64,000 bases of DNA from Klebsiella phage vB_KpM_FBKp34, in the sequence record MW394390.1. One strand, given 5' to 3'. The translations under genes were made by a program, and so were the position numbers. The notes under the pieces were generated by a model, which did not search any database, was not told the origin of the DNA, and saw nothing but the letters and a program-made list of their open reading frames with translations. Numbering within the stretch: position 1 is the first letter of the stretch; each line of letters opens with the position of its first letter. Positions 8,476 through 30,119 of the stretch are shown here, piece after piece.

Positions 8476-9237
8476 ATGTTTAGTTTGAGTAAATTCATCA
8501 GTCTTGCTTGTGAAGGTGATACAGTAGCTATCGACATGATTCATGCTGATGATAGTAAGCTCGTAACCAATTCTGAAACGTGGCAATATATTCGTGACAA
8601 TCGTCACCGTTTTTATACTAAAAAGCTGACAGGACTTTTTGGTTATGTAAGGAAACAAGCATCTAAGTATGGAATTAAAGGCTCCAGGCTTGCAGCATTA
8701 CGTGAAGTTGTAGAATATATTAAGACAATAGATGATTCTAAAAAGGTTGGTGATTTCAAAGAATATTTTCCACTCAATGAGTTTGCATATTGGATCTTTG
8801 CTACGGATAAAAATGGTGTAAATCAAATCTTTTATGAAGTTCTTGGAAGAAAGTTTCAACAAACAGTCTCAGTAAAAGAAATGAAAACATCTTTATTTAA
8901 ACTGTGGGAAGAATATGGTGATAGAGCACGTTTGGCTGAGGCTAATCAAGGTGTGGATTGGAAAGCTCTGAGCCACGCTCTTCGTGGTGGATATCAACTT
9001 ATTAACATTTATAAGCATGGTGATCTTGTTTATCCTATGGAACAAAATCCCTTGATTTTATCTGTTAAGACTGGTAACATGCCTTTCAATGAGGTTCAGG
9101 AAGAACTTGAGAAGGTTGTACAGGAAGTTGAAATTTTAGCAGAAAACTCTCATTATCCTTCTTCAGTAGATAAGGAATTTTGGGAAGATTTTCTAGAAGA
9201 GGTTTATTCAGAACATATTCTTGGAGCATATTTGTGA
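8476..9237 (+). CDS. nucleotidyltransferase, C-terminal part (same frame as 8266-8475)
   Basis: starts with ATG right after the TAA; contains VAIDMIHADD (possible third acidic residue) and a long helical domain. Confidence 0.5.
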   Translation: MFSLSKFISLACEGDTVAIDMIHADDSKLVTNSETWQYIRDNRHRFYTKKLTGLFGYVRKQASKYGIKGSRLAALREVVEYIKTIDDSKKVGDFKEYFPLNEFAYWIFATDKNGVNQIFYEVLGRKFQQTVSVKEMKTSLFKLWEEYGDRARLAEANQGVDWKALSHALRGGYQLINIYKHGDLVYPMEQNPLILSVKTGNMPFNEVQEELEKVVQEVEILAENSHYPSSVDKEFWEDFLEEVYSEHILGAYL

Positions 9238-10761: not shown

Positions 10762-11277
10762 ATGTTGAAATATAAAGTGATGGATTTGTTATTGGCTGCA
10801 AAAAGTGGAGAAGTAAATGTTATTGCACAACAATGTAACTGTTTTAATGCACGTAAACGTGGGATTGCCCCACTTTTAGATAAAGCTTTCCCGGAAGTCG
10901 CTATTGCAGATGATTCAACTATTAAAGGAGACCCTAAAAAATTTGGAGATTTCTCATATGCCCATTCTCCATTGTATAATTTAAGTATTTATAATTTATA
11001 CGGACAGTGGGGTTGGTGGAAACGTGAGGATGGAAAACCAAATACAGATTTAGATAAGCTTGAATCTTCTTTCAAAGCTATGTCTAAACAGCTAATGCTT
11101 TTTGAAAATCAGGATCTTAAAATTGGACTTCCCAAACTTGGTGCAGGTCTTGGAGGAGCAGAGTGGTCTTCTGTTGAAGATATTATCAAAAAGACATTGT
11201 GTGAAGCCGGGTACAATGTTACCATCTATGTACTTGATGAAGCTGAAATCCCTGAAAATGCCACTGTGATCAAATAA
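10762..11277 (+). CDS. macro-domain protein (ADP-ribose binding/hydrolase)
   Basis: 171 aa; VIAQQCNCFNARKRGIAPLLDKAF (macro N-terminal Gly-rich motif) and IGLPKLGAGLGGAEW (second macro motif). Confidence 0.55.
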   Translation: MLKYKVMDLLLAAKSGEVNVIAQQCNCFNARKRGIAPLLDKAFPEVAIADDSTIKGDPKKFGDFSYAHSPLYNLSIYNLYGQWGWWKREDGKPNTDLDKLESSFKAMSKQLMLFENQDLKIGLPKLGAGLGGAEWSSVEDIIKKTLCEAGYNVTIYVLDEAEIPENATVIK

Positions 11278-11286
11278 GAGGTCTAT

Positions 11287-12216
11287 ATGAAGTTAGACGA
11301 ACAAGAACTCAAAAAACGTTTTGAATCTAAGAAAAAAGATGCCAGGAAGCGTGGTATTGATTTCAAATTAACCATTGAAGATATGAAAGCACTTTTCTTA
11401 CGTAATGAGGGTAAGTGTGATTATACTGGTGTTACCTTTGATGAGGATAAACATAAGATATCCATTGAACGTTTAGATGATAAACTCGGTTATGAACGAG
11501 GAAATGTTTGTTTAACTTCAGTAGCAGTAAATAGAATAAAAGATTATGCTCTTGACAAAACCGAAGTACAAGTAGTAAGGATCAATGAAACTTCTGAAGC
11601 AATTTTACGAGTAGTTCAAGAGAAAGTTACACCAGAGTATAAAAGGTTTTTATCTTATAAATACAACCATTTAATTAAATTTGAATCTAATGTTTATAAA
11701 AATTATTTTAAAGGTATTGACTATACAAATTTTTATGATAACTTGAATGGTGTCTTAACACAAAAAATTGAACTATCACGTAATGATCAAGGAGTCCTGA
11801 AGATGTCAGATAAACAGATTGCCCCAGATGTACGCATTGCCTCTTACTATTCTGATATGGCTAAACATGCCTCTGCGGAAAAGAAAGAGTTTACAGTTAG
11901 TTTTGCAGAGTTTAAAGCTAAGTTTTCAGGAACTAAGTGCAAATTAACAGGAGAGACAATTGAACTGTCTCAAAAAGTCTTTATCCTGTTAGACCAAACC
12001 CAGGGTTATACTAAAGATAACATAGTGCTTGTAGGTAAAGAGGTGGGTTCAAAGATGGTAGAAGCTAGTAAGCTCTTAGGAATGTCTATTCCAGAGATGG
12101 CTAAGAATCTTAATCCTTTTGTCAAGAACTATGTACCAAAAAAGAAACCTGTACCCAAAACCCCGCTTGTATCTTTAAGCTCTATTATGAAAAGTAAAAG
12201 TGGAGATAAGAAGTGA
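11287..12216 (+). CDS. hypothetical protein with tandem degenerate HNH-like repeats
   Basis: 309 aa; two similar segments (CDYTGVTFDED...ISIERLD...GNVCL...NRIK and CKLTGETIELS...ILLD...DNIVLVGKE) resemble HNH cores lacking the catalytic His. Confidence 0.3.
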   Translation: MKLDEQELKKRFESKKKDARKRGIDFKLTIEDMKALFLRNEGKCDYTGVTFDEDKHKISIERLDDKLGYERGNVCLTSVAVNRIKDYALDKTEVQVVRINETSEAILRVVQEKVTPEYKRFLSYKYNHLIKFESNVYKNYFKGIDYTNFYDNLNGVLTQKIELSRNDQGVLKMSDKQIAPDVRIASYYSDMAKHASAEKKEFTVSFAEFKAKFSGTKCKLTGETIELSQKVFILLDQTQGYTKDNIVLVGKEVGSKMVEASKLLGMSIPEMAKNLNPFVKNYVPKKKPVPKTPLVSLSSIMKSKSGDKK

Positions 12217-13223: not shown

Positions 13224-13661
13224 ATGAATCCACTGTTTGATAAAATTAATGATTGGTTTGAAGATCTTAAGGAATATGCTGAAAACTCTCCCAAAGAGTT
13301 TCTTAAAGATATGGAATATATTTTAGATTCTAGCTTCTTTGAAGAAGTTTATGAGAAACTTGATACTGTTCGAAGCTCTTTGGATGACCTCCGTGAAGAA
13401 GTTGAAGCTAAAGTAGCACCTGAGTTTCGTGTTGAAAAACTTCATAAGTTGATTAAGCTTGTTGAAATTACAGATTTGAAAGGGAAATATGTTCGAGATG
13501 GATTTGAAGAAGATCTTTTTCTGAACCACAAAGATAAGATCCGTCCTCCAGTCAATACCCACCAAGTTGGAGACGTATTCCAAATTGAAGAGGTCGAAGC
13601 ACTCCTCGGTTCAACTGTTCTTAATAAAGAAGCTGTGTTGAAACTTCTGGAAAAACTTTAA
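13224..13661 (+). CDS. hypothetical acidic protein
   Basis: 145-aa ORF with RBS GAGGAG; followed by a terminator. Confidence 0.5.
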   Translation: MNPLFDKINDWFEDLKEYAENSPKEFLKDMEYILDSSFFEEVYEKLDTVRSSLDDLREEVEAKVAPEFRVEKLHKLIKLVEITDLKGKYVRDGFEEDLFLNHKDKIRPPVNTHQVGDVFQIEEVEALLGSTVLNKEAVLKLLEKL

Positions 13662-13682
13662 GGGCGAAAGCCCTTTTATTCA
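13661..13682 (+). terminator. rho-independent terminator
   Basis: AGGGCGAAAGCCCT hairpin followed by TTTATT. Confidence 0.55.
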
Positions 13683-13698
13683 CTTAACAGGGGGTGAA

Positions 13699-14985
13699 AT
13701 GTCTGAGAGTAAAATGCTAATCATGTTTGATTCAAAGAATAATAACAATAAATTCTATGAAGCAACCTTAGATGACGTTGGAAATATTGCAGTTCGTTTT
13801 GGTCGGGTAGGTGGCGGGGTTCAAACTACCTCCTACTCTGGTGGTAAAAAGAAGTTTGACAGTCTTGTTGCATCTAAAATCAAGAAAGGTTATAAAGAAG
13901 CACAACTAGAAGCTGTCTCTGGTGAAACTGGGTTGACTCAAAAAGTTAACGTAGTAGACATTGCACTTAAGCAAATTGATTGTAAAGACGACACAAGTCG
14001 TAATCTTATTCAAGCAATTGCTAAAGCAAACATTCATAATATCACCAGTTCTACCAACATTAAATATGATGAAAAAGATGGTCTGTTTAAGTCTCCTTTA
14101 GGAGTTGTAAAGAAAGCTGCTGTGGAAGAAGCAATGATCCATCTTGGTAATATTGAATCCCTTTTGGATGAATATGAAAAGAGTGGTAAAGGTGAAGATG
14201 AGATCTTAACTTTAAATGATTCTTATTTTGTTCTTATTCCTAATAAAGTTGCAACTACACGTGATAAACGTCACTTGTTGTTTAGTCAGAAAAAGATTGA
14301 TGAACAACGTGAAATTTGTAAAGCACTTCTGGAAACCTTAGACCTTATTGAAGAACTTAAGAAGAATCAGGAAGATAAACCTAAAGAAGAAGTTGAAGTA
14401 GAAAAAATCTTTAATTTTGGTATCTCTCATGTTGAAGATTCTGCTACAATTGATCGTATTGTTAAGTACTACAATGAAAGTAAAAATGCCCAACACGGCG
14501 GTCGCATCATGGGTTCTAAGGTTAAAAATATCTATAAAATTAATCTTGGAAATCAACAAGCACCATTTGATAAAGCCATTACTAAGTATGGAAATGTTCA
14601 TGAACTGTGGCATGGAACACGTGTAGCTAATTTGTTATCTATTTTCTGTAAAGGTTTGATGATGCCTAAGCAATCACCAGGGCAGAAAGCTGGTGCAATG
14701 TTTGCAGACGGTATATATTTCGCTAACCAAAGTTCTAAGAGCATCAACTATTGTGACGGCGGGTACTGGACAGGCGGTTCTGGTAGTGGTAAGGTATACA
14801 TGTTCCTAGCTTCAGTGGCTGTCGGAAATGCTTATACACCTAGAGGTCCAACGAGTCAATTGCCTCCGAAAGGTTATCATTCATATTGGGCGAAGGCTGG
14901 TTACTCTGGAGTCAGAAATGATGAAATCATTGTTTTTGATCTGAGTCAGATTCGTTTAGATTACTTACTTGAAATTGAATATTAA
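13699..14985 (+). CDS. WGR-domain poly(ADP-ribose) polymerase-like ADP-ribosyltransferase (H-Y-E class)
   Basis: 428 aa; N-terminal FYEATL...AVRFGRVGGGVQ (WGR-like); catalytic region HELWHGTRVANLLSIFCKGL...MFADGIYFANQSSKSINYC...NDEIIVFDLSQIRLDYLL is near-collinear with the PARP1 catalytic core (H-G-S, Y-F-A, catalytic Glu at 14923-14925). Confidence 0.8.
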   Translation: MSESKMLIMFDSKNNNNKFYEATLDDVGNIAVRFGRVGGGVQTTSYSGGKKKFDSLVASKIKKGYKEAQLEAVSGETGLTQKVNVVDIALKQIDCKDDTSRNLIQAIAKANIHNITSSTNIKYDEKDGLFKSPLGVVKKAAVEEAMIHLGNIESLLDEYEKSGKGEDEILTLNDSYFVLIPNKVATTRDKRHLLFSQKKIDEQREICKALLETLDLIEELKKNQEDKPKEEVEVEKIFNFGISHVEDSATIDRIVKYYNESKNAQHGGRIMGSKVKNIYKINLGNQQAPFDKAITKYGNVHELWHGTRVANLLSIFCKGLMMPKQSPGQKAGAMFADGIYFANQSSKSINYCDGGYWTGGSGSGKVYMFLASVAVGNAYTPRGPTSQLPPKGYHSYWAKAGYSGVRNDEIIVFDLSQIRLDYLLEIEY

Positions 14986-15974: not shown

Positions 15975-18900
15975 ATGCACCACCCATACAAAATTATAAA
16001 ACGTGATGGACGCACTGAACAATTTGATGAACGTAAAGTTTACAATGCAGTATATCAAGCAGCACTAGCTAACTCTTCATTATCAATCACAGCAGAACAT
16101 GTTGCTGATCAAATCACAGAACACGTTATTAAAAATCTCAAAGAGAATAAGTCAGTCTCAAATGTTCAAAAAATGATTGAAGATTTCCTTATGTCTAATC
16201 CAAAGACATATGATATAGCCAGAACCTATATTGAGTACAGACATGATAGAGATAAAATTCGTGAAGGAAATGGGAAACTTTATAATGACATCTCTGGCTT
16301 CTTAGAACAAACAGCAGAAGAATTTACTCGTGAGAACGCTAATAAACCCAGCAATGTTGTAAACACGCACAGAGACCTCTTAGCAGGGATTTTAAGTAAG
16401 CATGTAGCATTAACTCAAATACTACCTAAAAACCTCTCAGAATGGCATACAAGCGGTTTTGGGCATATTCATGACCTAGATTATCTAATCAGTCCTCTTA
16501 CAAATTGTCTAGGAAGAGAAACAGCTTTTATCACAAAAGAAGGAACAAAAACGTTTTTCGATTTTAATAGTGGAGATGATGTCCTAGCCTTAACCCATAC
16601 AGGTACTTTTAAGAAGGCAAAAGTTTACAATTATGGGTACGGACTTTTAAATGAAATTACATTAAAACGTGGACGTCTAAGAAAAACAATACGTGCAACA
16701 GCTAATCACAGGTGGTTATTAGAGGATGGCACAGTCACTACTAACCTTAAGGTAGGTGATAAACTACTGAAAACTCCTACAACATATAATAGAGATTGGG
16801 CCACATTGAGCAACTCTGAAAAAAGAGCTTGGTGTTTTGGTTTTGGATATGCAGATGGTGTGAGTAGGATTACACAATGGGGTAATTTTTTTACTATACC
16901 CCTTATTGGTAAAAAACAGGATTATCAAGAATTATTTGAAGATGCTGGATTTAGAGTTACTAAAACAAAGTTGTACTCTGTAGTACATTTAGGTAAATTA
17001 GAAAAATTTTTACCTACAACATTAACCCATACAGAAAATGAGATTTTTTGTTTTGTTGATGGGCTTATAGCAGCAGACGGACATAAAAAATATAGACCTA
17101 AGCTAAATAAAAATATTCCAGCGTCGATTCAGATGACTGGAGAAGAAATAAATGACTTTATACAAACTTGGTTTGAACCTGCTGGGTATTATTTGGGGGC
17201 AACGTTAGATCTTTCCTGTCAAGAAACAAATTATGGTAAAAGAAACGGAAAAACTATAGAATATAAATTAAACCCAGAACAGAACCATATGGCATGGACT
17301 GTCACTGAAATTATCAACACAGGCAAAGAAGAGGAGGTGTGGTGTTTGGAGGTGGAAGAAGATGCAAGTTTTATTCTTTCTAATGGAGTAGTCACAGGTA
17401 ACTGTTGTCTTGTTAACTATCAAGATATGTTAGAAAATGGTTTCCATATTGGAAATGCTTTCATTGAAAAACCTAAATCAATTGGTGTTGCTACTACAGT
17501 GTTGACACAAATTATTCAGGCGGTGGCCTCTAGTCAATATGGTGGACAAACTTGCGCACATATTGATACAGGATTAAAACAGTATGTAGAGTCAACATAC
17601 TATAGGAATGAAGGTTTATTTAATCAATATAATATCTCAGAATATAAAGTAGATGCTTTTAGGAAAACAGAACAAGATGTCTATGATGCAATGCAAACCC
17701 TTATTTATCAGGTTAATACATTAATGAGTGTAAATGGTCAGTCTCCATTCATCACTATTAGTCTTGGTTTAGATACTTCAGAATTTGGTAGAATGATCAC
17801 TCGTAACTATCTAAAAATTCATAAAGAAGGTCTGGGTAAAGATAAAGTAACACCTGTGTTCCCGAAAGTGATTTTCTTTCTTGAAGAAGGTGTAAACATG
17901 CACCCTGATGATCCTAATTATGACCTGAAACAACTAGCAATGGAGTGTTGTGCAGAAAGAATTTATCCAGATTTTATTTCAGTTCCTAGAAATAAACTAG
18001 TTACAAAATCTTCAAAAGGTCATGTTACTAGCATGGGCTGTCGTAGCTTCCTTTCTTATTTTGCTACAGAACAAGGTGAGAAATATGATGGCAGATTTAA
18101 TCTTGGGGTAGTGTCTTTAAACCTACCGATGATTGCCAAGGATTGTACCACCAACGGAAAACTTTTTCTTGAAGAACTTTATAAGCATATGCAAACAGCA
18201 TATGAAGCACATATGCTGAGGATTAATCGCCTTAAGGGAACTAAAGCAAAACAAAATCCTGTGATGTTCGTTGAAGGAGCATTAGCTAGACTCGATCCTG
18301 AAGAAACTATTGACAAACTTTTTTACAAAGGTTATGCTTCAGCAAGTTTTGGTTATGTAGGGCTTTACGAATGTGTAAAAATCCTTTATCCAGAGGTAAC
18401 TTTAGACGAGTACAAGGATTTTGGACAAAAAATTCTTAAATTTATGTCTAATATGGCAGAAGATTATAAAAAGAAAACAGGTGTAGGTTTTGGTCTTTAT
18501 GGAACCCCAGCAGAATCACTTTGCTATAAGTTTGCTAATAAAATTAATGAGAAATTCCCAGGAACTATCGAGAAAGATTACTTGACCAACTCTTTCCATG
18601 TTCCAGTAGACCAAGAAGTAGACCCTTTTACTAAATGGAATGTTGAATCAGGGTTTGACTTTATCAGTTCAGGTGGTAATATAGGTTATGTTGAGACACC
18701 AAATCTGAAACACAACATGCAAGGACTGGAAGCATTAATCAACTATGGATATGAAAATATTCATTACTTTGGGATTAATCAACCTGTTGATAAATGTCTG
18801 AAGTGTGGCTTTCATGGAGAGTTTAAAGCAACAGCAGAAGGCTTTGAATGTCCTGATTGTGGCAATACTGAGGAAGGAACGATCAACGTGATTCGGAGAG

Positions 18901-18992
18901 TCTCAGGTTACTTATCTGCACCTAACAGCAGACCTTTTAATAAGGGTAAGATGCAGGAAGTTGTTCAACGTGTAAAACATACAAATTTATGA
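15975..18992 (+). CDS. nrdD: anaerobic ribonucleoside-triphosphate reductase NrdD carrying an intein
   Basis: 1005 aa; C-terminal glycyl-radical motif RRVSGYLSAP and Zn-ribbon CLKCG...CPDCG; ATP-cone-like N-terminus; 299-aa in-frame insertion with intein and LAGLIDADG signatures. Confidence 0.8.
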   Translation: MHHPYKIIKRDGRTEQFDERKVYNAVYQAALANSSLSITAEHVADQITEHVIKNLKENKSVSNVQKMIEDFLMSNPKTYDIARTYIEYRHDRDKIREGNGKLYNDISGFLEQTAEEFTRENANKPSNVVNTHRDLLAGILSKHVALTQILPKNLSEWHTSGFGHIHDLDYLISPLTNCLGRETAFITKEGTKTFFDFNSGDDVLALTHTGTFKKAKVYNYGYGLLNEITLKRGRLRKTIRATANHRWLLEDGTVTTNLKVGDKLLKTPTTYNRDWATLSNSEKRAWCFGFGYADGVSRITQWGNFFTIPLIGKKQDYQELFEDAGFRVTKTKLYSVVHLGKLEKFLPTTLTHTENEIFCFVDGLIAADGHKKYRPKLNKNIPASIQMTGEEINDFIQTWFEPAGYYLGATLDLSCQETNYGKRNGKTIEYKLNPEQNHMAWTVTEIINTGKEEEVWCLEVEEDASFILSNGVVTGNCCLVNYQDMLENGFHIGNAFIEKPKSIGVATTVLTQIIQAVASSQYGGQTCAHIDTGLKQYVESTYYRNEGLFNQYNISEYKVDAFRKTEQDVYDAMQTLIYQVNTLMSVNGQSPFITISLGLDTSEFGRMITRNYLKIHKEGLGKDKVTPVFPKVIFFLEEGVNMHPDDPNYDLKQLAMECCAERIYPDFISVPRNKLVTKSSKGHVTSMGCRSFLSYFATEQGEKYDGRFNLGVVSLNLPMIAKDCTTNGKLFLEELYKHMQTAYEAHMLRINRLKGTKAKQNPVMFVEGALARLDPEETIDKLFYKGYASASFGYVGLYECVKILYPEVTLDEYKDFGQKILKFMSNMAEDYKKKTGVGFGLYGTPAESLCYKFANKINEKFPGTIEKDYLTNSFHVPVDQEVDPFTKWNVESGFDFISSGGNIGYVETPNLKHNMQGLEALINYGYENIHYFGINQPVDKCLKCGFHGEFKATAEGFECPDCGNTEEGTINVIRRVSGYLSAPNSRPFNKGKMQEVVQRVKHTNL
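16506..17402 (+). mobile_element. intein with double-motif LAGLIDADG homing endonuclease inside nrdD
   Basis: begins SPLTN|CLGRETAFITKEG (block A-like, Cys1) and ends FILSNGVVTGN|CCLVNY (block G-like, terminal Asn, +1 Cys); internal FGFGYADGVS and FVDGLIAADGH LAGLIDADG motifs. Confidence 0.7.
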
Positions 18993-21652: not shown

Positions 21653-22630
21653 GTGACACATCATTTTGGGTTCCCCCTTCTGGATATTGCAGTTCTTGTT
21701 GGAGTTCTTGCACTATCAATCCTTGTAGATTTCTTTGGACACAAGGAAAATAAAGAGATCGGTATTAAGTCTGCATTGGCTTGGTCTGCATTTTGGATCG
21801 CATTAGCATTTGCATACTATGGTTTTATTTGGGTAGAGTATGGCAAAGAATTTGCCTCTTTGTTTCTGAGTGGGTATGTGCTAGAAAAATCATTGTCTGT
21901 GGATAACTTGATGGTGTTCATGGCAATCTTCGCTAGCTTCGGGATCAAATCGACACACTTACAGCATAAGATTCTTCTTTGGGGTATTGCTGGTGCCATT
22001 GTATTTCGAGGTATCTTTGTGGCAGCAGGTACGGCAATCTTTAATTTACACTGGTTTTTCCAAGTGCTGTTCGGTCTGATTGTAGCATGGTCTGCACTGG
22101 CTATTATCAAAGGCGGCGATGATGAGGAAGATGAAGTTGATTACTCTAAACACTGGGCGACTCGTCTGGTTGGTAAGATTCTTCCTGTTCATCCGGCTCT
22201 AGATGGCGAGAAATTTATCACCATTAAGAATGGGATCAAGTATGCAACTCCGGCTTTGTTGTGTGTCTTTGTAGTGGAGTTTACTGATGTAATTTTCTCC
22301 TTTGACTCTGTCCCGGCTGTAATTGGTGTGACGCAAGAACCTCTGCTGGTTTACTCTGCAATGTTATTTGCAATTCTTGGTCTCCGTGCACTGTTCTTTG
22401 TACTGAGTGTAGCAGTTAAATACTTGGTTCATCTGGAAAAAGCCGTTGCTGTAGTTCTAGTGTTTGTAGGTGCTAAACTGATTTACCATCCTTTTGGTGA
22501 GACACTAAATGCAAAATGGTCTTTCCTGCCACATGATATCTCAGCAAACGTAAGTCTTTGTATTGTACTTGGAACGCTGGCCTTGGGTATTATTGCAAGT
22601 CTGGTTTTTCCTGAGAAAAAAGAAGCTTGA
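21653..22630 (+). CDS. TerC-family integral membrane protein
   Basis: 325 aa, multi-pass; LEKSLSVDNLMVFMAIFASF matches the TerC E-x-SLSVDN signature; GTG start with RBS GAGGAGA. Confidence 0.7.
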   Translation: MTHHFGFPLLDIAVLVGVLALSILVDFFGHKENKEIGIKSALAWSAFWIALAFAYYGFIWVEYGKEFASLFLSGYVLEKSLSVDNLMVFMAIFASFGIKSTHLQHKILLWGIAGAIVFRGIFVAAGTAIFNLHWFFQVLFGLIVAWSALAIIKGGDDEEDEVDYSKHWATRLVGKILPVHPALDGEKFITIKNGIKYATPALLCVFVVEFTDVIFSFDSVPAVIGVTQEPLLVYSAMLFAILGLRALFFVLSVAVKYLVHLEKAVAVVLVFVGAKLIYHPFGETLNAKWSFLPHDISANVSLCIVLGTLALGIIASLVFPEKKEA

Positions 22631-22634
22631 GAAT

Positions 22635-22657
22635 AGCCCCGAAAGGGGCTTTAGTTT
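22635..22657 (+). terminator. rho-independent terminator
   Basis: AGCCCCGAAAGGGGCT hairpin followed by TTAGTTT. Confidence 0.55.
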
Positions 22658-22674
22658 AAAGAGGAAACTTTAAC

Positions 22675-23037
22675 ATGAATGATATTTTTGATGAAATGGA
22701 AGAATATGCTTGGGCTTTGGGTGATAATGTAAATGCAATGGCTTTACTCCAAGAAAGATACCCACAAACAAACATTCAGATCTTAGAAGTTTCCGATCTA
22801 ATTCTTCCTAAAGGTGTTGTAGCTTGTTGTGGTACGGGCGCAGGGGAAGTAACACCTGTAAAACGTTTAGAAATGGCTTTTGGCTCCAGTTTAAATGGTG
22901 AAATGGAAAATGCTACCTTTGTCCAATTCTGGACTTCACCAAATGCTAAATTATTTGACAACACAACTTGGGAACTTTTCTTCTGGGATCAGGTGAAGGA
23001 TCGAGAGGTACAGTTTGAAGTTCCTGTTGTAGAATAA
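22675..23037 (+). CDS. hypothetical protein
   Basis: 120-aa ORF with RBS AAGAGGA. Confidence 0.5.
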   Translation: MNDIFDEMEEYAWALGDNVNAMALLQERYPQTNIQILEVSDLILPKGVVACCGTGAGEVTPVKRLEMAFGSSLNGEMENATFVQFWTSPNAKLFDNTTWELFFWDQVKDREVQFEVPVVE

Positions 23038-23146
23038 TGTTGACTTTTGCTAAGACAAGCTTTATAGTTTGTCTTGTTGAAAGAAACAAACCAGTAAGGA
23101 GTAAAAATGTTTGCTGAAGAAGATATTCATTCAGAGATAGAATGGC

Positions 23147-23353
23147 TTGAATTTATTACAGAAAATTGGGAAGGTTAAAATGTTTGATTTGACTTATCAG
23201 TTTGACCCTGAGAGAGTATGTCTATGCCCAATTTGTGATCAACCAATGTTTACTTACGAAGCAGTAACAACTATCGTAGTCGATGATTGTCAATGTATGG
23301 CACACAATTTTTGTGCAATCAATTTCGACGAGGAAGAAGACGATGAAGATTGA
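23147..23353 (+). CDS. hypothetical zinc-finger protein, acidic C-terminus
   Basis: 68 aa; CLCPICDQ...CQCMAHNFC...EEEDDED. Confidence 0.4.
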   Translation: MNLLQKIGKVKMFDLTYQFDPERVCLCPICDQPMFTYEAVTTIVVDDCQCMAHNFCAINFDEEEDDED

Positions 23354-23528
23354 GATCATTCACTCAGCAGGAACACCTTTTGAGGAAGGTAAACAATATG
23401 ACTTGGTCTACGATAGATATCTTCGTACCTATATGATCCAAGAGTGGGAACATGGTGAGTTATTGGAAACGTGGCTCAATGATTTGATTCATGATGCAGT
23501 TGAGTTTAAAATTATTAAGGAGAGTTAA
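23343..23528 (+). CDS. hypothetical protein
   Basis: ORF 23283-23528 trimmed to the ATG at 23343. Confidence 0.35.
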   Translation: MKIEIIHSAGTPFEEGKQYDLVYDRYLRTYMIQEWEHGELLETWLNDLIHDAVEFKIIKES

Positions 23529-23732
23529 ATGCCCAACATGAGCTATTGCCAATTTAGAAATACAGAAGGTGATTTTCGTCAATGTCTTGATGCAATTGGC
23601 AACGCAGAGTCAATTGAAGATTTTTCACAAAGTGAGCAAAACTCTGCGGAAAATTTATATGAAATGGCGAAAGATTATGTCAATTGGTATGAACAATTAT
23701 TAGATCAAGAGGTTGAAGATGAAGATTGTTGA
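23529..23732 (+). CDS. hypothetical acidic protein
   Basis: 67-aa ORF. Confidence 0.4.
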   Translation: MPNMSYCQFRNTEGDFRQCLDAIGNAESIEDFSQSEQNSAENLYEMAKDYVNWYEQLLDQEVEDEDC

Positions 23733-23976
23733 ACAATATGTTTTTGAAGTTGGGGATGTCTTTACAGGTAAAGGTGATGGTTGTTGGTTAGTGCCAAATC
23801 AACGAAGACTCCTTTCAGCACCAGATCACTATCTTTTTGTAAAAGAAGTTGGGATCAATGCAGTTTATCTTTGTGGTGTAGGGTATGCTTATAATTTTTC
23901 ACCAGAAGAGTTGACAGACCATATTAAAAAAGATAATCTCATTTATCTTGGTAATGTTTACAAAGGTAAAAACTAA
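23713..23976 (+). CDS. hypothetical protein
   Basis: 87-aa ORF. Confidence 0.45.
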   Translation: MKMKIVEQYVFEVGDVFTGKGDGCWLVPNQRRLLSAPDHYLFVKEVGINAVYLCGVGYAYNFSPEELTDHIKKDNLIYLGNVYKGKN

Positions 23977-24308
23977 TGAAAATTTTAATTATCTATGAAA
24001 ATATTCCAGAAACAACAGATCTTTTTGTTCTTGAAACTTCTGATTCTGAAGAGATCAAAAATCTGAGCGTCATTCATGGACACTATATTAATGCAGAAGA
24101 GAATGAAAAAATTCTTGACAATTGTACACGGTGGTACTATAAGCTATACGGTGAGACTACTTGGGCTGACAAGGAAGAGTATAGTAAATATGGTGTGCAG
24201 GATAGTGAAGTAGGAAAATATCTTAAAAATAAGATTGACTATCAAGATATCTTAGATGTAAAATCTTTAGATATTGATTATGTAGTTGTAACAGGATTTA
24301 TTTGTTAA
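23976..24308 (+). CDS. hypothetical protein
   Basis: 110-aa ORF. Confidence 0.45.
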   Translation: MKILIIYENIPETTDLFVLETSDSEEIKNLSVIHGHYINAEENEKILDNCTRWYYKLYGETTWADKEEYSKYGVQDSEVGKYLKNKIDYQDILDVKSLDIDYVVVTGFIC

Positions 24309-24328
24309 TTTAGAGGAGAAACACTAAT

Positions 24329-25042
24329 ATGAGTAATAAACTATCACTTGAGAAACGTACTGAGACTGTAAAACTGTCCCTGGAAAAAGCTGGTGTTCAA
24401 CGCAAGGATATTTGTCTCCGTGTAGCGCTTGCACTGGATAAAAGTGGATCAGCAGAAGATTTCTATCGTAATGGTCAATTTGAAGAGTTGGTTGATCGAC
24501 TCCTACCAGTCTCTGCAAATATGGATGATGACGGTACTATTGACACTTGGCTATTCCATACTCGCTCAATGGAGGTTGAACCTGCAACACCTAAAAACTA
24601 TGGCGGATACATCTCTAACGTCATCATGAAGGGTAAATATAAAAACGAGTGGGGTGGTACTAATTATGCTCCAGTGATGAAAGACATTCATCATCATTAC
24701 TTTGGAAAAGAAGAGAAGAAAGGTCTGTTTGGTTTTGGTAAAGCCAAAACTGTCCCTGTAACAGATTCAGATATTCCCGCACTTGTTTTCTTTATTACCG
24801 ATGGTTCTAATAGTGATCGGGTTGAGACTTTGCGACTACTTGACAGTATCAAAGATGAGCCTGTATATTGGATGACAGTAGGTGTTGGTCCAGATAGCTA
24901 CTTCACTTTCCTTCGTGAGATTGCTGAACGTTATGATAATGTAGGATTTGTTAATTTTAACAATCTAAATATTAGTGATGAGCAAATGTATAATGCAATC
25001 ATTGATGGTGAACTTGCAGCATGGATTAATAAGGTCTCCTAA
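24329..25042 (+). CDS. vWA-domain protein (TerY-like)
   Basis: 237 aa; MIDAS motif LALDKSGSAED (DxSxS); position immediately upstream of two TerD genes, as with TerY in ter operons. Confidence 0.55.
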   Translation: MSNKLSLEKRTETVKLSLEKAGVQRKDICLRVALALDKSGSAEDFYRNGQFEELVDRLLPVSANMDDDGTIDTWLFHTRSMEVEPATPKNYGGYISNVIMKGKYKNEWGGTNYAPVMKDIHHHYFGKEEKKGLFGFGKAKTVPVTDSDIPALVFFITDGSNSDRVETLRLLDSIKDEPVYWMTVGVGPDSYFTFLREIAERYDNVGFVNFNNLNISDEQMYNAIIDGELAAWINKVS

Positions 25043-25109
25043 AAGAGTTGACTTTAAATTTTACTTTGAATATAATATTTAAACTGAATAACTAAGAGAG
25101 GAAATAAAT

Positions 25110-25691
25110 ATGTCACTTAATCTGGAAAAAGGTTCTTCATTGCCAATGGTTAAAGAAGATGGCAAAACTCCACTAAAACGAGTTCGTGTAGAGTTATCCT
25201 GGAATCCTAATACCAATTCATCTTCACATGATTTTGATCTGGATGTTCTTGGCGCAGTCTGTAAGAATGAAAATCTGCAAGCTGTATCAGTTAGTGAAGT
25301 TGCATACTGGGGGCAAAAACAGACTAAAGCAATTAACGTCTCCCCTGATAATCAAACTGGTATTGGTGATGGTGTTGATGAGTTCCTGGATATTAATCTT
25401 GAAAATGTGTCTTCAGACGGAGATCGTATTCCAGTTTTGGTTTATATCTACAATGCACGACCACGAAATCAGAGTTTTGCTCAGGTAGATGGTGCTAGTG
25501 TTGTTCTTCGTGACCTTGACTCAGGTAAAACTATTGGTTCTTGTAATATCTCTGAGAAAGGTTCTTCTATAGATGAGTCGCTTCTTGTTGGTGTATTTGA
25601 GAAACAAGCAGATGGAACTTTTATTTACAACCAAGTGAATGAGTTTTATGATAAGAGTTTTCAAGAATGGGTAGGTGTTTTTACTAACTAA
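25110..25691 (+). CDS. TerD-family protein
   Basis: 193 aa; MSLNLEKGSSL, DFDLDVLG, PDNQTGIGDGVDEFLDINL and RNQSFAQVDGA are collinear with E. coli TerD. Confidence 0.8.
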   Translation: MSLNLEKGSSLPMVKEDGKTPLKRVRVELSWNPNTNSSSHDFDLDVLGAVCKNENLQAVSVSEVAYWGQKQTKAINVSPDNQTGIGDGVDEFLDINLENVSSDGDRIPVLVYIYNARPRNQSFAQVDGASVVLRDLDSGKTIGSCNISEKGSSIDESLLVGVFEKQADGTFIYNQVNEFYDKSFQEWVGVFTN

Positions 25692-25752
25692 TTAGTTAAA
25701 GGCACTATTGGAGATAGTGCCACTTTTAATCTCGAAAACAGGAGAAAATATT

Positions 25753-26334
25753 ATGGTTTTAAGTCTGGATAAAGGTTCTAAGCTGTCACTAGATAAATTT
25801 CAAGCATCTGATCTGAAAGTATTGCGTGTTGAAATGACTTGGGACGCACCAGAGAAAACGAGTTCTTTCTTTAAGAGCTATGATTATGATCTTGATGTAA
25901 TTGCAGTTATTGTAGACAAAGATAATAAGGCTGTGGATGGCTCTAAACACTTTTGTTTCTTCAACCAACAGGAAACTCCAGCAATCAAAAGTTCTGGAGA
26001 TGATTTAAATGGGGAGGATGGCGGTGAATCTCTCCTGATTACCCTGGATAAAGTTCCTGAAAAAGGTAAACATATTCCAATTATTGTTGACCTTCATAAG
26101 GCTAAGGAACGTAAACAGAACCTTTCTCAAATGAAAGATGGTACGGTTCGTATTCTTAATCATGAAACAGACGAACTTCTTGCAGAAATTAAGATGAATA
26201 CTTTCTCAAGTAATGATACATCTATCTTGTTTGTGGTTGTTAATCGCACGGATACGGGTTTTGAAGTAGAGAACGTTAGTACAGCATACCCTAAGAGTAT
26301 TGTTGACTGGATTGAACTTTACCAAGTACAATAA
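25753..26334 (+). CDS. TerD-family protein (second paralog)
   Basis: MVLSLDKGSKLSL...YDYDLDV...GDDLNGEDGGESLLITLDKVP; start set to the ATG at 25753 after AGGAGAAAAT. Confidence 0.7.
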   Translation: MVLSLDKGSKLSLDKFQASDLKVLRVEMTWDAPEKTSSFFKSYDYDLDVIAVIVDKDNKAVDGSKHFCFFNQQETPAIKSSGDDLNGEDGGESLLITLDKVPEKGKHIPIIVDLHKAKERKQNLSQMKDGTVRILNHETDELLAEIKMNTFSSNDTSILFVVVNRTDTGFEVENVSTAYPKSIVDWIELYQVQ

Positions 26335-26352
26335 GATCATTTTAAACTGTTA

Positions 26353-26377
26353 GGTGGGCCGATGCCCACCTTTTATT
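26353..26377 (+). terminator. rho-independent terminator
   Basis: GGTGGGCCGATGCCCACC hairpin followed by TTTTATT. Confidence 0.6.
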
Positions 26378-26392
26378 AGGAAGGAGATTAAA

Positions 26393-27271
26393 ATGAGTGC
26401 AGACTATAAAAACCTTTTCAATAAACAAAAAGATTATTCTAATCTGTTCTCTGACAGTCAAAAACAAACTAAACAGGAATCAAACATGTCATATAAAAAT
26501 ATATTTGGCAATTCGGTATCTGTTCCCGAAGTTACTAAAATAAAATCAGTTTTCCCTGAAAAACAAATTGATGCACGAGTAAAAGATATTCAAACTATAG
26601 ATGCTAAAATTAGTACCCATGCTGTGATAAGCTGGATAGATAATTTTGATAATAACTTCAAGAAACTCACTACCATCAACCAGGAAGTTTCTCAATGTGA
26701 GTTAGATTTAGCAATGGAATTTACTAGTGGCAGACTTCAAGTACAAACCCTCTTCAATGATATAAAACAGGCTGTTTCCAAGTTAAAGGGACCGCAAAAG
26801 AAGCCTGGGCTACTATCACGTATTTTAGGTTCTAATGAGGAGTTTAAGTTAACTCAGGAAATTATTACCGAAGTTATCCAAGAGATTAAATTAAACTTGG
26901 AACAATTTAAGAACAAGGCCAAATATAACACTAGCATGTTTTTAAAATCAGAAATGAGGGCTATAGAAGCTAAAATTTTGGATTTAAAAAGTGACCTGGA
27001 GTGTGCTATTGTTGCTGCAACTTACATGATAAATAGTGATGATTTTAAGGGAACTGTTAGATTAGAGAAATTAAAACAAGTAAGTGGTTTAACAAATATT
27101 TCAGAATTGCAATTAAAAAATACTTACCAACTTCTTGAGAAAGATCTTGAAGCATACGAGAACTTAAAAAACATGACAATTCCATTTTTGTATGCTAAGA
27201 TCCAAACCTTAATGAGTAGCACTTTAGATTCTGAAGCGCTTAACGTGATTAATGATATTGATAAACTTTGA
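26393..27271 (+). CDS. TelA-like helical protein, paralog 1 (call by context)
   Basis: 293 aa from the ATG at 26393 (RBS GGAAGGAG); shares the N-terminal MS..YKNLFNK motif with the next gene; all-helical and Lys/Glu-rich; sits after TerD as TelA/YceH does in ter clusters. Confidence 0.35.
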   Translation: MSADYKNLFNKQKDYSNLFSDSQKQTKQESNMSYKNIFGNSVSVPEVTKIKSVFPEKQIDARVKDIQTIDAKISTHAVISWIDNFDNNFKKLTTINQEVSQCELDLAMEFTSGRLQVQTLFNDIKQAVSKLKGPQKKPGLLSRILGSNEEFKLTQEIITEVIQEIKLNLEQFKNKAKYNTSMFLKSEMRAIEAKILDLKSDLECAIVAATYMINSDDFKGTVRLEKLKQVSGLTNISELQLKNTYQLLEKDLEAYENLKNMTIPFLYAKIQTLMSSTLDSEALNVINDIDKL

Positions 27272-27281
27272 GGATTAAATT

Positions 27282-28358
27282 ATGTCATATGGTAATCTAT
27301 TCAATAAAACACAAGCTGCTGAAAATGTTGCAAACAAAAACTCTACAACATTTACTCAACCTGTAAAATCTTTACCTATTTTAAAAGATGCAGAAGGCAA
27401 TACTTATGCAATGGAATTGAGTGAAATTCAAAATTTTGGTATTGTTAAAAATTCAAAACAATCTGAAATTAATAATCAAATCTTATCTAAAACTCTTGTT
27501 GCAGATAGTGGTGTAATGGCACAAGGCTTTACTCAAATTATGGCTCTATCTGAAAAAGTAGATATTGGTTCTTTAACTGATGGCAAAGTTGGTTTCTTAA
27601 AAAGTTTACGTAATAAGTTTATTGATCGTAAAGCTGAAGTGAAAGCTCAATTTACTACTGTGCGTAAACAAATTACAGATGTCGCAGCTAACCTTAAGAC
27701 GAAACTTATTGAAATGGAAGAAGAAGGTAAGTGGTTAGAATCTATGTATAAGGCAAACCTTGAAGAAGTTCGTATGTGGGAGCAAAATAAAATTCTTGTT
27801 AATGATGCACTTGAACAAGCTGAGAGTTACCTACAAAACTTAATTAATACAGATGCCTCCGTAGATCAAATCGAAGAAACTCGAATGAAAGTTAATGCAC
27901 TAAGTAAACAAGCAGATAAAGTAAATAAAATGCACCAACTGAGTGCTATTGCTGCACCAGAGATACGTATGATGCAAGTTACCAACTTCAATAATGTGAA
28001 TAAGTTCAATGATATTCTTGAGTTAACAATCCCATACTGGGAAAAGAAAATGTCCCTGGCATTAAACGCAGAAAATCAGCGACAACAAATTGCTCAAGCA
28101 AAAGTTATGGATGATTTTACTAACAACTTAATTCAAGAAACCGCTAAACAGGTAGGACAAAATATGGTAGATTCGGCTAAAGCAAATCAAAGAGGGATTG
28201 CTGATGTAGATATTATGGTAGAAGCTACTAATGTCATTATCAATTCTATAAAAGAAGTTGTAGAGATTGATAAGAATGGTAATAATGTACGTAAAGAAAA
28301 TGCCAAAAAGATTGAAAAATCTTTGGTAGATATGCAGGATGCATTACGTAGTGTATAA
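27282..28358 (+). CDS. TelA-like helical protein, paralog 2 (call by context)
   Basis: 358 aa, a size typical for TelA/KlaB; coiled-coil-rich; paralogous N-terminus MSYGNLFNK. Confidence 0.4.
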   Translation: MSYGNLFNKTQAAENVANKNSTTFTQPVKSLPILKDAEGNTYAMELSEIQNFGIVKNSKQSEINNQILSKTLVADSGVMAQGFTQIMALSEKVDIGSLTDGKVGFLKSLRNKFIDRKAEVKAQFTTVRKQITDVAANLKTKLIEMEEEGKWLESMYKANLEEVRMWEQNKILVNDALEQAESYLQNLINTDASVDQIEETRMKVNALSKQADKVNKMHQLSAIAAPEIRMMQVTNFNNVNKFNDILELTIPYWEKKMSLALNAENQRQQIAQAKVMDDFTNNLIQETAKQVGQNMVDSAKANQRGIADVDIMVEATNVIINSIKEVVEIDKNGNNVRKENAKKIEKSLVDMQDALRSV

Positions 28359-28374
28359 AATTTTATGTTGACTA

Positions 28375-28405
28375 AAAGGGGCTAATTGCCCCTTTACTAT
28401 TTTTA
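28375..28405 (+). terminator. rho-independent terminator
   Basis: AAAGGGGCTAATTGCCCCTTT hairpin followed by ACTATTTTT. Confidence 0.6.
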
Positions 28406-28422
28406 AAATATAAGGAGGACTT

Positions 28423-28932
28423 TTGCTAAAGAAACTGCCAATGATTTTGTTGACAGCGATACTAGCGCTTCAGAACGCTGCTGCGAGCACTTCAAGTAAA
28501 GATAAGCCATTACATACCTGTACTAAGAAAGATTCAACCACGCTCGTTTTGGCGTGCTCTATGTATGCTGAGGCACGTGGAGACGGTGAAAAAGGTATGT
28601 TGATGGTAGGTAATGTAATTTTAAACAGGAAAAATCATGAAGATTACCCCTCTAAAATCAAAAAAGTAGTTTATCAGAAGAATCAATTTTCATACTTAAC
28701 AGGAAGTCCTGTAAGAATTTATGAAAAAGACACCTGGAATAAAGCTAAAAACTTAGCTAAATTTTTGATTTTATTAGAGAATGAAGATCCTTCTCTGAGG
28801 GTATTGCACGACCGAACTAAAGGTGCTATCTTTTATGTCAAGAGAGGTACAAGAGTAGCTTGGTTAAAATCAATGAAAAAGGTTGCAAGCTATAAAGACC
28901 ATGATTTCTATGTTCCAAAATCAGATACATAA
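28423..28932 (+). CDS. SleB-like cell wall hydrolase (Hydrolase_2 family), secreted
   Basis: 169 aa; signal peptide MLKKLPMILLTAILALQNAAAS; LACSMYAEARGDG...VGNVILNR...YQKNQFS matches the SleB family; TTG start 5 nt after TAAGGAGG. Confidence 0.6.
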   Translation: MLKKLPMILLTAILALQNAAASTSSKDKPLHTCTKKDSTTLVLACSMYAEARGDGEKGMLMVGNVILNRKNHEDYPSKIKKVVYQKNQFSYLTGSPVRIYEKDTWNKAKNLAKFLILLENEDPSLRVLHDRTKGAIFYVKRGTRVAWLKSMKKVASYKDHDFYVPKSDT

Positions 28933-28944
28933 TGGAGATTAAAA

Positions 28945-29196
28945 ATGGCTGGTTATCACATTAAAGAAATTGAAAAACGTCGTTATGGATCATTAGGTAA
29001 GATTCAGGAGGAAGTAGAAGAACTTCTAGATGCACATCAACAAGGTAGCTACATTATGATGTTGGTAGAACTCTCTGATTTATACGGTGCTATTGAAGGT
29101 TTCATGGAAGAAAACTTTCCTGACATGAAGATTGCAGATCTTAAAAAGTTCTCAGATATCACAAAACGTGCGTTTAAAGAAGGTCATCGATCATGA
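28945..29196 (+). CDS. MazG/HisE-like all-alpha NTP pyrophosphohydrolase
   Basis: 83 aa; IQEEVEELLDAH...MMLVELSDLYGAIEGF matches the EExxE...E(L)xD(L) metal-binding helices of MazG/HisE. Confidence 0.45.
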   Translation: MAGYHIKEIEKRRYGSLGKIQEEVEELLDAHQQGSYIMMLVELSDLYGAIEGFMEENFPDMKIADLKKFSDITKRAFKEGHRS

Positions 29197-29783
29197 ACAT
29201 AAATCTTGACTTGATCCAAAAAGCTATTGATTGGTATAGCACAGATTGTGTTTTATCAAGCGTACCATACTTAGTGGACCAAGATATTATGAAGTGGACT
29301 TGTCCACCTGGTGTTGTAGATCGTAGAATGACACACTACAATGATAAACAATACGTTGCCAGTGCAGAACAATCTTTCCTTCAGCTAGAGAAAGATGGAG
29401 AGATAACAGATGGGATTAAACCGCTTATTGCATTGACGCCTTGTTATAGAGACGAACCAATTCTTGATGAGACTCATTTTAACATCTTTTTAAAATTAGA
29501 AATTTTTGATTATAACCCTAAAGGTCCAGTAGATTATTCAGTTTTCTGGGCTAAAAGAATGTCTCTATTTTTCCTAGAGTTTGATCTAAAAACAGACATC
29601 ATTCAAACAGATATTGGTTATGATGTGATGTACGGAGACTTAGAGTTAGGAAGTTTTGGAGAAAGAATCTCACCAAAAGGTATCCCTTACGTGTATGGTA
29701 CAGGTCTTGCAGAACCCAGGGCATCTTTAGCATTACAAAGAAATTCTAAAAAGTTGTTGCTTTCTGACTCAAGTGTGTCATAA
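29193..29783 (+). CDS. small class-II aminoacyl-tRNA-synthetase-like ligase core (AsnA/EpmA-like?)
   Basis: 196 aa; LTPCYRDEP resembles class II motif 2 (c-[FY]-R-[DN]-E) and VYGTGLAEPRASLAL resembles motif 3 (G-x-G-x-x-R). Confidence 0.3.
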   Translation: MNINLDLIQKAIDWYSTDCVLSSVPYLVDQDIMKWTCPPGVVDRRMTHYNDKQYVASAEQSFLQLEKDGEITDGIKPLIALTPCYRDEPILDETHFNIFLKLEIFDYNPKGPVDYSVFWAKRMSLFFLEFDLKTDIIQTDIGYDVMYGDLELGSFGERISPKGIPYVYGTGLAEPRASLALQRNSKKLLLSDSSVS

Positions 29784-29814
29784 TTAGCTCATCAAAACAT
29801 GAGAGGGCTTATTA

Positions 29815-30117: not shown

Positions 30118-30119
30118 TA

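Follow-up and report, generated by a model that had tools for sequence, protein, structure and literature searches.

What kind of enzyme is encoded by a putative poly(ADP-ribose) polymerase (PARP) gene in a lytic Klebsiella phage, to which other PARPs is it related, and what might it do in an infected cell? The gene lies in a stretch of 64,000 nucleotides from Klebsiella phage vB_KpM_FBKp34 (MW394390.1), which we refer to as the window. It is an open reading frame (ORF) on the plus strand, running from ATG to TAA at positions 13699 to 14985, and it encodes 428 amino acids plus the stop codon. We conclude that it probably encodes a functional, allosterically regulated ADP-ribosyltransferase with the architecture of PARP1, PARP2 and PARP3, a prediction drawn from its sequence and from a model of its fold. 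Phage PARPs are a kind already known, and one described purely computationally. What is new here is the recognition of a helical domain (HD) in the enzyme, its placement together with the fungal Pyl1-class PARPs in a phage and megaplasmid family, and two clade-specific candidate partner genes.

Domain architecture and catalytic residues

A first-pass annotation of the window had described a WGR domain followed by a PARP catalytic domain. Hidden Markov model searches against Pfam recover both, above their gathering cut-offs: the WGR domain (PF05406) scores 30.9 bits against a cut-off of 22, and the catalytic, or ADP-ribosyltransferase (ART), domain (PF00644) scores 87.7 bits against a cut-off of 26.7, with an E-value (E) of 9.7e-25 over residues 249-399. 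All that the annotation claimed at the level of sequence holds, but as an account of the domain content it was incomplete. Between the two domains it overlooked the HD (PARP_reg, PF02877), which scores 34.4 bits against a cut-off of 26.8. Because the HD stands between WGR and ART, the phage enzyme has the allosteric architecture of the PARP1/2/3 type.

When the protein is compared with the sequences of solved structures in the PDB by phmmer, the top match is the catalytic fragment of human PARP1 (E 2e-20), and the alignment to PARP2 covers residues 7 to 355, that is, it runs across WGR, HD and ART. The HD region also aligns with the HD of PARP1, both in phmmer and in the family alignment. The three-domain match of this ORF to PARPs is far beyond chance. 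An AlphaFold2 model computed from a 75-sequence alignment has a predicted local distance difference test score (pLDDT) of 87 and a predicted template-modelling score (pTM) of 0.77, and it places helices at residues 98-117, 139-162, 166-179 and 197-225, in the HD region. In Foldseek, the model best matches WGR-HD-ART chains from complexes of PARP1 and PARP2 with DNA breaks (E 1e-23 to 1e-25), with alignments of about 480-490 columns and template-modelling scores of up to 0.67.

We assign the WGR domain from the Pfam match together with the full-length fold match, rather than from a PDB search with the isolated domain. Its motif varies at the first position only: G35 and R36 are present in all 75 family members compared, and position 34 is Tyr in 50 of them, Phe in 11 and Trp in 6. 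A 'YGR' variant of the motif has been reported for bacterial PARPs (PMC5966428). The domain carries a net charge of +4.

The motifs by which the catalytic region had originally been likened to PARP1 are all present and are aligned by phmmer: LWHGTR with LWHGSR, MFADGIYFANQSSKSINYC with MFGKGIYFADMVSKSANYC, and NDEIIVFD with YNEYIVYD, the last of which retains the catalytic Glu (E409). The H-Y-E triad survives careful alignment. H305, Y340 and E409 share alignment columns with the triad of PARP1, and each is kept in at least 118 of the 119 rows (119, 118 and 118, respectively) of an alignment that comprises 117 homologs, the phage protein and the human PARP1 catalytic fragment. K347, S348 and Y351 are conserved in the same alignment; we take these to be Lys903, Ser904 and Tyr907 of PARP1 by standard numbering. 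Across 75 sequences there are 28 invariant columns, including H305, G306, Y340, S345, Y351 and E409, and in the NAD-binding signature 23 of the 49 aligned positions are identical between the phage enzyme and PARP1. The position of PARP1 Tyr986 is occupied in the phage PARP family by an invariant Asn (Asn407). As had been proposed, the enzyme is distinct from the R-S-E enzymes Alt and Mod of phage T4, with their Alt/VIP2-type fold: in Pfam, PHROG, PDB and Foldseek alike, it matches solely PARP or H-Y-E families.

Over the whole gene, the ratio of nonsynonymous to synonymous substitution rates (dN/dS) is 0.14 in comparison with Klebsiella phage KP13-16, and 0.07 in comparison with Klebsiella phage 05F01, for which dS is saturated. 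The PARP gene is under strong purifying selection.

Rarity and breadth of the family

The gene is genuinely phage-borne, since it is found in the complete genomes of the isolated phages KP13-16 and 05F01. A PARP in a phage had been called rare, and among isolates the rarity is real: a tblastn search (E≤1e-5) finds a homolog in 8 of 50,697 deposited phage records. The isolate lineages concerned are two Klebsiella phages, the Xanthomonas jumbo phages XacN1 and Xoo-sp13, and the Stenotrophomonas phages CM1 and RAS14; the other positive records are two uncultured huge phages. Rarity does not amount to novelty, however, because phage PARPs are already present in the literature and in the PHROG collection. 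The protein matches PHROG 23333 (E 1.6e-57). ORF414 of XacN1 (BBA65562.1) bears the label poly(ADP-ribose) polymerase, and Iyer et al. (2021) cite it as an example of a phage PARP; Perina et al. (2014) list PARPs in double-stranded DNA viruses, and according to Iyer et al. (2022) the PART/PARP family is one of the ADP-ribosyltransferase families most often found in viruses. A 2026 Klebsiella-phage paper names 'PARP' once, in a list of bacterial defences, and makes no mention of a phage-encoded PARP. The 'PARP-domain' proteins of T4-like phages such as pf16 and phiAS5 (1,200-1,400 amino acids) have a different architecture and match weakly in structure.

At E≤1e-30, metagenomic data yield 325 representative clusters of the family (50% identity); of the best 150 of these, nearly all are about 405-455 amino acids long and align from end to end. 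The family is carried by 89 viral contigs in IMG/VR, many of them 150-550 kb in length, and by 28 plasmid records; 13 of the 15 plasmids listed are megaplasmids of 0.7-1.2 Mb. The megaplasmid hosts are Pseudomonas, Vibrio, Variovorax and Aneurinibacillus, and the homolog there is labelled only as 'WGR domain-containing protein'. A scan of GTDB genomes returned 2 loci, but because it used a single peptide pattern it is a poor guide to absence from bacteria. Neither NCBIfam nor PADLOC holds a model for the PARP family, which accounts for its poor annotation, and the PADLOC defence-model search gave no match for the phage enzyme. Its counterpart in KP13-16 is labelled 'hypothetical protein', and the counterpart in 05F01, 80% identical in protein sequence, is labelled 'ADP-ribosylation'.

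Fungal relatives of the phage enzyme

The first-pass annotation had called the enzyme 'eukaryote-type'. This holds for its architecture, but not for its closest kin: the nearest relatives are phage, megaplasmid and fungal Pyl1-class proteins (35-94% identity), whereas the canonical PARP1-3 are about 30% identical. The named matches at 45-60% identity are fungal, from Yarrowia, Trichomonascus, Smittium, Coemansia, Dipsacomyces, Linderina and Hesseltinella. The phage protein is 52-59% identical to the fungal Pyl1-class proteins over 283 shared columns, as compared with about 30% for human PARP1. The phage and fungal proteins have in common a run of 26 gap columns relative to PARP1 immediately before the catalytic Glu, an insertion after the NYC motif, and the motifs SPGQKAGAMF.DG.YFANQSSKS.NYCDG and PPKGY.SYWAKAG.SGV.NDEIIVF.

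We placed these sequences in trees built by neighbour joining (NJ) only, the sole outgroup being the human PARP1 catalytic fragment with its central segment filled in. In the PARP1-rooted tree, the fungal sequences nest inside the phage and mobile-element radiation, beside the Klebsiella-phage clade. The smallest clade that contains both the fungi and the phage enzyme excludes each of three other tested prokaryotic or viral groups in 97%, 99.5% and 99.5% of 200 bootstrap replicates, respectively; monophyly of the fungi themselves receives 60% only, and several metagenomic neighbours in the tree (P0040 and P0049) are of uncertain origin. We regard this pattern as evidence that the gene was transferred between fungi and a lineage of phages or mobile elements, the simplest direction being into the fungi.

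Two of these metagenomic neighbours deserve a description of their own. The non-fungal homolog that is among those nearest the fungal clade lies on a 65-kb contig (L091, the context of P0040), which mixes phage-like genes for a ribonucleotide reductase, a CCA-adding enzyme and an S49 peptidase with genes for a TSP1_ADAMTS-domain protein and a MYG1 exonuclease. This contig could come from a giant virus or from an unusual large phage, and it could represent a bridge between bacterial and eukaryotic hosts. P0049 comes from a gene-sparse contig in a very large assembly.

The fungal proteins matter here because one of them has been studied biochemically. Pyl1 of Yarrowia lipolytica was reported in 2025 to modify itself with poly(ADP-ribose) (PAR), to PARylate Ku70/80 and to make PAR; the authors describe a 'distinct class' of sparse distribution whose eraser is unknown, and they never use the words 'phage' or 'horizontal' (PMC12412787). 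Citarelli et al. (2010) interpreted the Yarrowia gene as a Clade 1 PARP that had been retained. PARP_reg is said to be absent from Pyl1 (PMC12412787). The Yarrowia sequences P0031 and P0032 align with the HD helices of the phage enzyme on either side of a large coiled-coil or low-complexity insertion; the HD of Pyl1-type proteins appears, in these alignments, to be split rather than absent.

A broader proposal would take the compact WGR-HD-ART lineage of phages and megaplasmids as the source of the fungal Pyl1-class PARPs, which include the only budding-yeast PARPs, so that their patchy distribution among fungi would reflect transfer rather than vertical retention. The same proposal would treat the Klebsiella-phage PARP and the gene directly upstream of it, called Y below, as a two-gene cassette in which Y is a regulator or adaptor. 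We advance it tentatively, rating its chances as a whole a little below even.

Candidate partner genes

Gene Y (Table 1) has no match in Pfam, PHROG, NCBIfam or the PADLOC defence models. It occurs in 2 of the 50,697 phage records, both of them PARP-positive Klebsiella phages, and in 12 clusters among 5.8 billion proteins. For three of these clusters, the longest contig has exactly the same length as that of a PARP homolog (5,206, 7,869 and 135,098 bp), which suggests that the two genes are on the same contigs. Y precedes PARP in all seven loci of the clade, in which the identity of PARP to the phage enzyme ranges from 59% to 94%. The Y proteins of these loci are 23-37% identical to one another where they can be aligned, with the exception of the near-identical copy in KP13-16, and they conserve a C-terminal motif, L.LN..G.[IVL]RPP[VIM]. 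We consider Y a candidate partner or regulator of the PARP.

Near-identical copies of PARP (98%) and of Y (90%) are also found on a 7,869-bp contig labelled 'MAG: Actinobacteria bacterium' (P0009 and P0269). This contig is almost certainly mis-binned and derived from the present group of Klebsiella phages.

A GC-rich tetraloop hairpin lies between Y and PARP; for the whole 52-nucleotide stretch examined here, which forms two hairpins, the fold energy is -15.4 kcal/mol. An equivalent tetraloop hairpin follows the Y stop codon in six of the seven clade loci, and a T-run accompanies it in three. From its sequence we infer that the element is terminator-like or attenuator-like; the pattern scan scored the minus strand only, and the plus-strand stem followed by TTTTATT is our own reading.

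A different gene accompanies PARP elsewhere in the family. In 33 of 87 loci, a member of family X (about 215 amino acids; alignment A2) is found downstream of PARP, always on its strand, and in 23 of these the two genes are no more than 1 kb apart. The family has a conserved N-terminal domain with the motif FTAFDVT..LR..H, and profile searches give weak AbrB/MraZ-like hints in the C-terminal part and weak helix-turn-helix hints. We take X to be a probable DNA-binding partner of phage PARPs. In the window, hmmsearch and hhalign find no member of family X. The X loci belong to the jumbo-phage branch (L013-L086 in IMG/VR; for example, L014:9349-10011), and beside a bacterial homolog in locus L006, X forms a domain of a 1280-amino-acid protein.

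The window also contains a divergent macrodomain protein, which surfaced through neighbourhood clustering and not through the Pfam scan of window ORFs. In a phmmer search of the PDB it matches BT1257 (E 3e-7), SCO6735 (E 8e-5) and TARG1 (E 0.018), and it matches PHROG 335 (E 5.6e-44) and the PADLOC DarG model (E 4e-8). Its Pfam Macro score of 15.1 bits is under the cut-off of 22, and its NCBIfam DarG score is far under the cut-off. The protein is thus a candidate member of the SCO6735/BT1257/DarG subclass, for which the TARG1 catalytic residues Lys84 and Asp125 are not needed. A macrodomain lies within 8 kb of PARP in 9 of the 87 loci. Since SCO6735 removes Glu-linked ADP-ribose from PARP1 (PMC5087735), the phage macrodomain may act as an ADP-ribose eraser.

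In nine loci from one group of related jumbo phages (L038-L049 and L063), a T4 Rnl1-type RNA ligase gene lies just upstream of PARP, and genes for a deoxynucleoside monophosphate kinase-like P-loop protein, a non-specific endonuclease and a topoisomerase II subunit are nearby. The proximity of RNA ligase and PARP may be local synteny only.

Proposed mechanism and alternatives

In the mechanism that we propose by homology with PARP1 and PARP2, the WGR domain would bind a nucleic-acid end or break during infection, this binding would release the autoinhibition exerted by the HD, and the ART domain would then draw on host NAD+ to attach ADP-ribose to the enzyme itself and to proteins close by, and possibly to DNA ends. 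The product would probably be PAR, since Pyl1, the closest relative to have been characterised, shares the short loop that precedes the catalytic Glu, makes PAR, and PARylates the Ku complex, which binds DNA ends. By analogy with Pyl1 and Ku, we favour as targets, speculatively, proteins at the DNA ends or in the nucleoid of the infected cell, and the role of the modification might be host takeover or the protection of phage DNA ends. The acidic protein Y might serve as a clade-specific regulator, adaptor or target, and the DarG/SCO6735-like macrodomain might strip protein-proximal ADP-ribose; both suggestions are likewise speculative.

Gene contexts in other lineages support a real consumption of NAD+, because they bring PARP homologs together with genes for NAD uptake and salvage and with SIR2. 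For example, one homolog directly follows PnuC and a NadR-like AAA_28 kinase, with a NUDIX gene nearby (L092, the context of P0024). Another lies a few kb from isochorismatase/PncA-like, NAPRTase and NMNAT-like genes (L005, the context of P0070), and a third adjoins a SIR2 gene (the P0049 contig).

Several points weigh against this mechanism or against parts of it. An H-Y-E triad is needed but insufficient for polymer synthesis, PARP3 and PARP4 being H-Y-E mono-transferases, and the phage enzyme has its gap columns immediately before the catalytic Glu. Its WGR motif has Phe in place of Trp at position 34, and the WGR region, when searched alone against PDB sequences, finds no match at E≤1. Pyl1 was active in vitro without a need for added DNA (PMC12412787), for which reason we see the DNA dependence of the phage enzyme as evenly balanced. 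No recognisable PARG or ARH, and no NADAR, NAMPT or NMNAT, appears in a Pfam scan of about 45 ORFs from the non-structural half of the window, which leaves the macrodomain as the sole candidate eraser there. Y and PARP could be linked simply because gene order is shared within one phage clade, and the terminator-like hairpin parts the two genes. Finally, members of the macrodomain family are present in 1,324 phage records, almost all of them PARP-less, as against 8 for PARP. Given these records and the likeness to DarG, it is no less likely that the macrodomain works independently of PARP, in anti-defence or RNA repair, than that it acts as an eraser, and its candidacy as a dedicated PARP partner is weakened.

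It is important to ask which other readings would accommodate these facts. The enzyme might transfer single ADP-ribose units, either as a mono-ADP-ribosyltransferase like PARP3 and PARP4, acting on a few host proteins, or as a modifier of DNA or RNA ends, acting on phosphorylated termini. The shortened segment before the catalytic Glu and the replacement of PARP1 Tyr986 by Asn407 would both suit such an enzyme; PARP4, a mono-ADP-ribosyltransferase by its PDB name, is among its sequence and fold matches; the co-resident macrodomain resembles the SCO6735/DarG type, which removes mono-ADP-ribose from Glu or from DNA rather than cleaving PAR; and the scanned window ORFs include no PARG. But Pyl1, with its identical short loop, shared motifs and 59% identity across the conserved regions, is a reported PAR maker, and the phage enzyme keeps K347, S348 and Y351 intact alongside its triad. 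We consider single-unit transfer rather unlikely, albeit the most serious of the alternatives.

It might also be supposed that the main role is to drain or re-route NAD+, shutting off the host or pre-empting NAD-dependent defences, with automodification as an incidental effect. NAD+ is a recognised battleground between phages and their hosts (PMC9503650), and the salvage, uptake and SIR2 contexts in three other lineages point in the same direction. Against this, the WGR sensor and the HD are conserved under strong purifying selection, which argues for a triggered, localised activity rather than that of a bulk NADase. Moreover, phage replication normally suffers when NAD is depleted, and none of the scanned window ORFs was recognised as a gene for NAD resynthesis, so that a drain on NAD+ as the main role strikes us as improbable. 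Still less credible is the view that the ORF is a recent passenger that contributes nothing to infection, or a decoy devoid of catalytic activity. The gene is indeed absent from almost all related phages (8 of 50,697 records), and its flanking genes vary among the three Klebsiella phages. A passenger, however, would hardly be expected to show dN/dS values of 0.07-0.14, catalytic and NAD-binding residues kept in more than 100 homologs, 325 clusters whose listed members are nearly all full-length, and conserved clade-specific neighbours; we give this view very little weight. The reading that we prefer is a regulated ADP-ribosyltransferase of the PARP1/2/3 architecture.

Genomic setting

The genome belongs to a lytic Klebsiella phage of the Stephanstirmvirinae. 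At about 140 kb it is not a jumbo phage, and the region with the PARP gene is 92-95% identical in nucleotide sequence to KP13-16 (137 kb). The PARP gene is part of a long plus-strand block that holds a YqeY-like gene, NrdD, NrdG, a Ter-type cluster, a primase-helicase and a family-A DNA polymerase, with NrdD and NrdG following PARP. From this setting we infer that PARP is expressed with the early or middle genes. The annotation of the first 29 kb of 05F01 is almost wholly 'hypothetical'. The features of the window are collected in Table 1.

Table 1. Position of the PARP gene, its domains and catalytic codons, and other features of the window.
Feature	Position	Strand	Description or basis
RlaP-like nucleotidyltransferase	8476-9237	+	PHROG 388, E 4e-83
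Macrodomain protein, putative SCO6735/BT1257/DarG type	10762-11277	+	171 amino acids; 2.4 kb upstream of PARP
Protein with two HNH/endonuclease VII-like halves	11287-12216	+	309 amino acids; between macrodomain and PARP
Gene Y	13224-13661	+	orphan acidic protein, 145 amino acids, isoelectric point 4.7; directly upstream of PARP
GC-rich GAAA-tetraloop hairpin, then T-run	13660-13682	+	between Y and PARP; sequence reading
Shine-Dalgarno sequence GGGGGTG	13690-13696	+	5' of the ATG at 13699; direct sequence reading
PARP gene (WGR, HD, ART)	13699-14985	+	ORF, three Pfam domains, PHROG 23333, AlphaFold2, Foldseek, dN/dS
WGR domain, residues 6-69	13714-13905	+	Pfam; motif F34-G35-R36 at 13798-13806
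HD (PARP_reg) domain, residues 102-227	14002-14379	+	Pfam; AlphaFold2 helices; PARP1 HD alignment
ART (PARP catalytic) domain, residues 249-428	14443-14982	+	Pfam
Catalytic codon H305	14611-14613	+	PARP1 triad alignment
Catalytic codon Y340	14716-14718	+	PARP1 triad alignment
Catalytic codon E409	14923-14925	+	PARP1 triad alignment
NrdD	15975-18992	+	1005 amino acids
Ter-type cluster	21653-31869	+	
TerC	21653-22630	+	
vWA-TerF-like	24329-25042	+	
TerD, first gene	25110-25691	+	
TerD, second gene	25708-26334	+	
TelA	27282-28358	+	
HAD-like hydrolase	30395-31045	+	
ComF-like PRTase_3	31045-31869	+	

Some of these neighbours are of interest in their own right. NrdD carries an intein-like insert (Pfam Intein_splicing, a weak match, residues 216-475). 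Since its ortholog in KP13-16, of 706 amino acids, has no insert, the intein has been recently gained or lost. The Ter-type cluster, which resembles those of 'tellurite resistance', is a complete stress-response cluster in a phage. In a related contig (L094) a TerC gene lies about 1.6 kb downstream of PARP, and in XacN1 a vWA gene comes after PARP. The protein with two HNH/endonuclease VII-like halves also matches PHROGs named 'Srd anti-sigma factor' and 'decoy of host sigma70'. The RlaP-like nucleotidyltransferase family (cluster 16) occurs within 8 kb of PARP in six loci, including L003.

Significance and comparison with known systems

With the cultured phages KP13-16 and 05F01, whose genomes are about 140 kb and whose host is tractable, gene deletion, proteomic identification of targets and biochemical work are within reach, and easier to carry out than with jumbo phages. 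The tie to Pyl1 provides an evidence-based expectation that the phage enzyme would really synthesize PAR, and it suggests why PARPs might be so puzzlingly sparse among yeasts. Y in the present phages and X in the jumbo phages are concrete candidates for regulators or substrates of phage PARPs.

The Pyl1-class proteins of Saccharomycotina, Kickxellomycotina and Mucoromycota resemble the phage enzyme in their N-terminal WGR domain, their HD helices and their H-Y-E domain. They differ from it in the coiled-coil or low-complexity insertion in the HD, which brings them to 450-630 amino acids, whereas the HD of the phage enzyme is contiguous. They are also chromosomal eukaryotic genes that act on Ku and telomeres, whereas the phage PARP is found in a bacterial cell; to our knowledge, an infected bacterial cell has no counterpart of Ku or of telomeres. 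Human PARP1, PARP2 and PARP3 share with the phage enzyme the WGR-HD-ART module, the H-Y-E triad, the NAD-binding signature and the predicted fold. At about 30% identity, however, the phage enzyme lacks zinc fingers, BRCT domain and N-terminal extension, and unlike human PARP1 it has FGR (YGR in the family) in place of WGR, a shorter segment before the catalytic Glu, and Asn for Tyr986. We know of no HPF1 or PARG partner for it.

The PARPs of jumbo phages and megaplasmids (for example, ORF414 of XacN1 and those of Vibrio and Pseudomonas) are members of the family too; they match the phage enzyme in architecture and length and are 31-35% identical to it from end to end. The jumbo-phage loci usually have X downstream, whereas the Klebsiella-phage clade is without X and has gene Y upstream instead. 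Among prokaryotic chromosomal enzymes, HaPARP of Herpetosiphon aurantiacus and CdPARP of Clostridioides difficile CD160 have the WGR-(HD)-ART order, the H-Y-E triad and a YGR-type motif. HaPARP is reported to need DNA for activation and to make long PAR chains (PMC4245714), and CdPARP is reported as highly active, at about 3-fold above HaPARP (PMC5966428). Both, however, accompany a PARG or DUF2263 gene in their genomes, and both fall outside the 120 best matches of the phage enzyme. T4 Alt, ModA and ModB, finally, are phage-encoded users of NAD+, as is the enzyme described here, but they are R-S-E mono-ADP-ribosyltransferases without WGR or HD.

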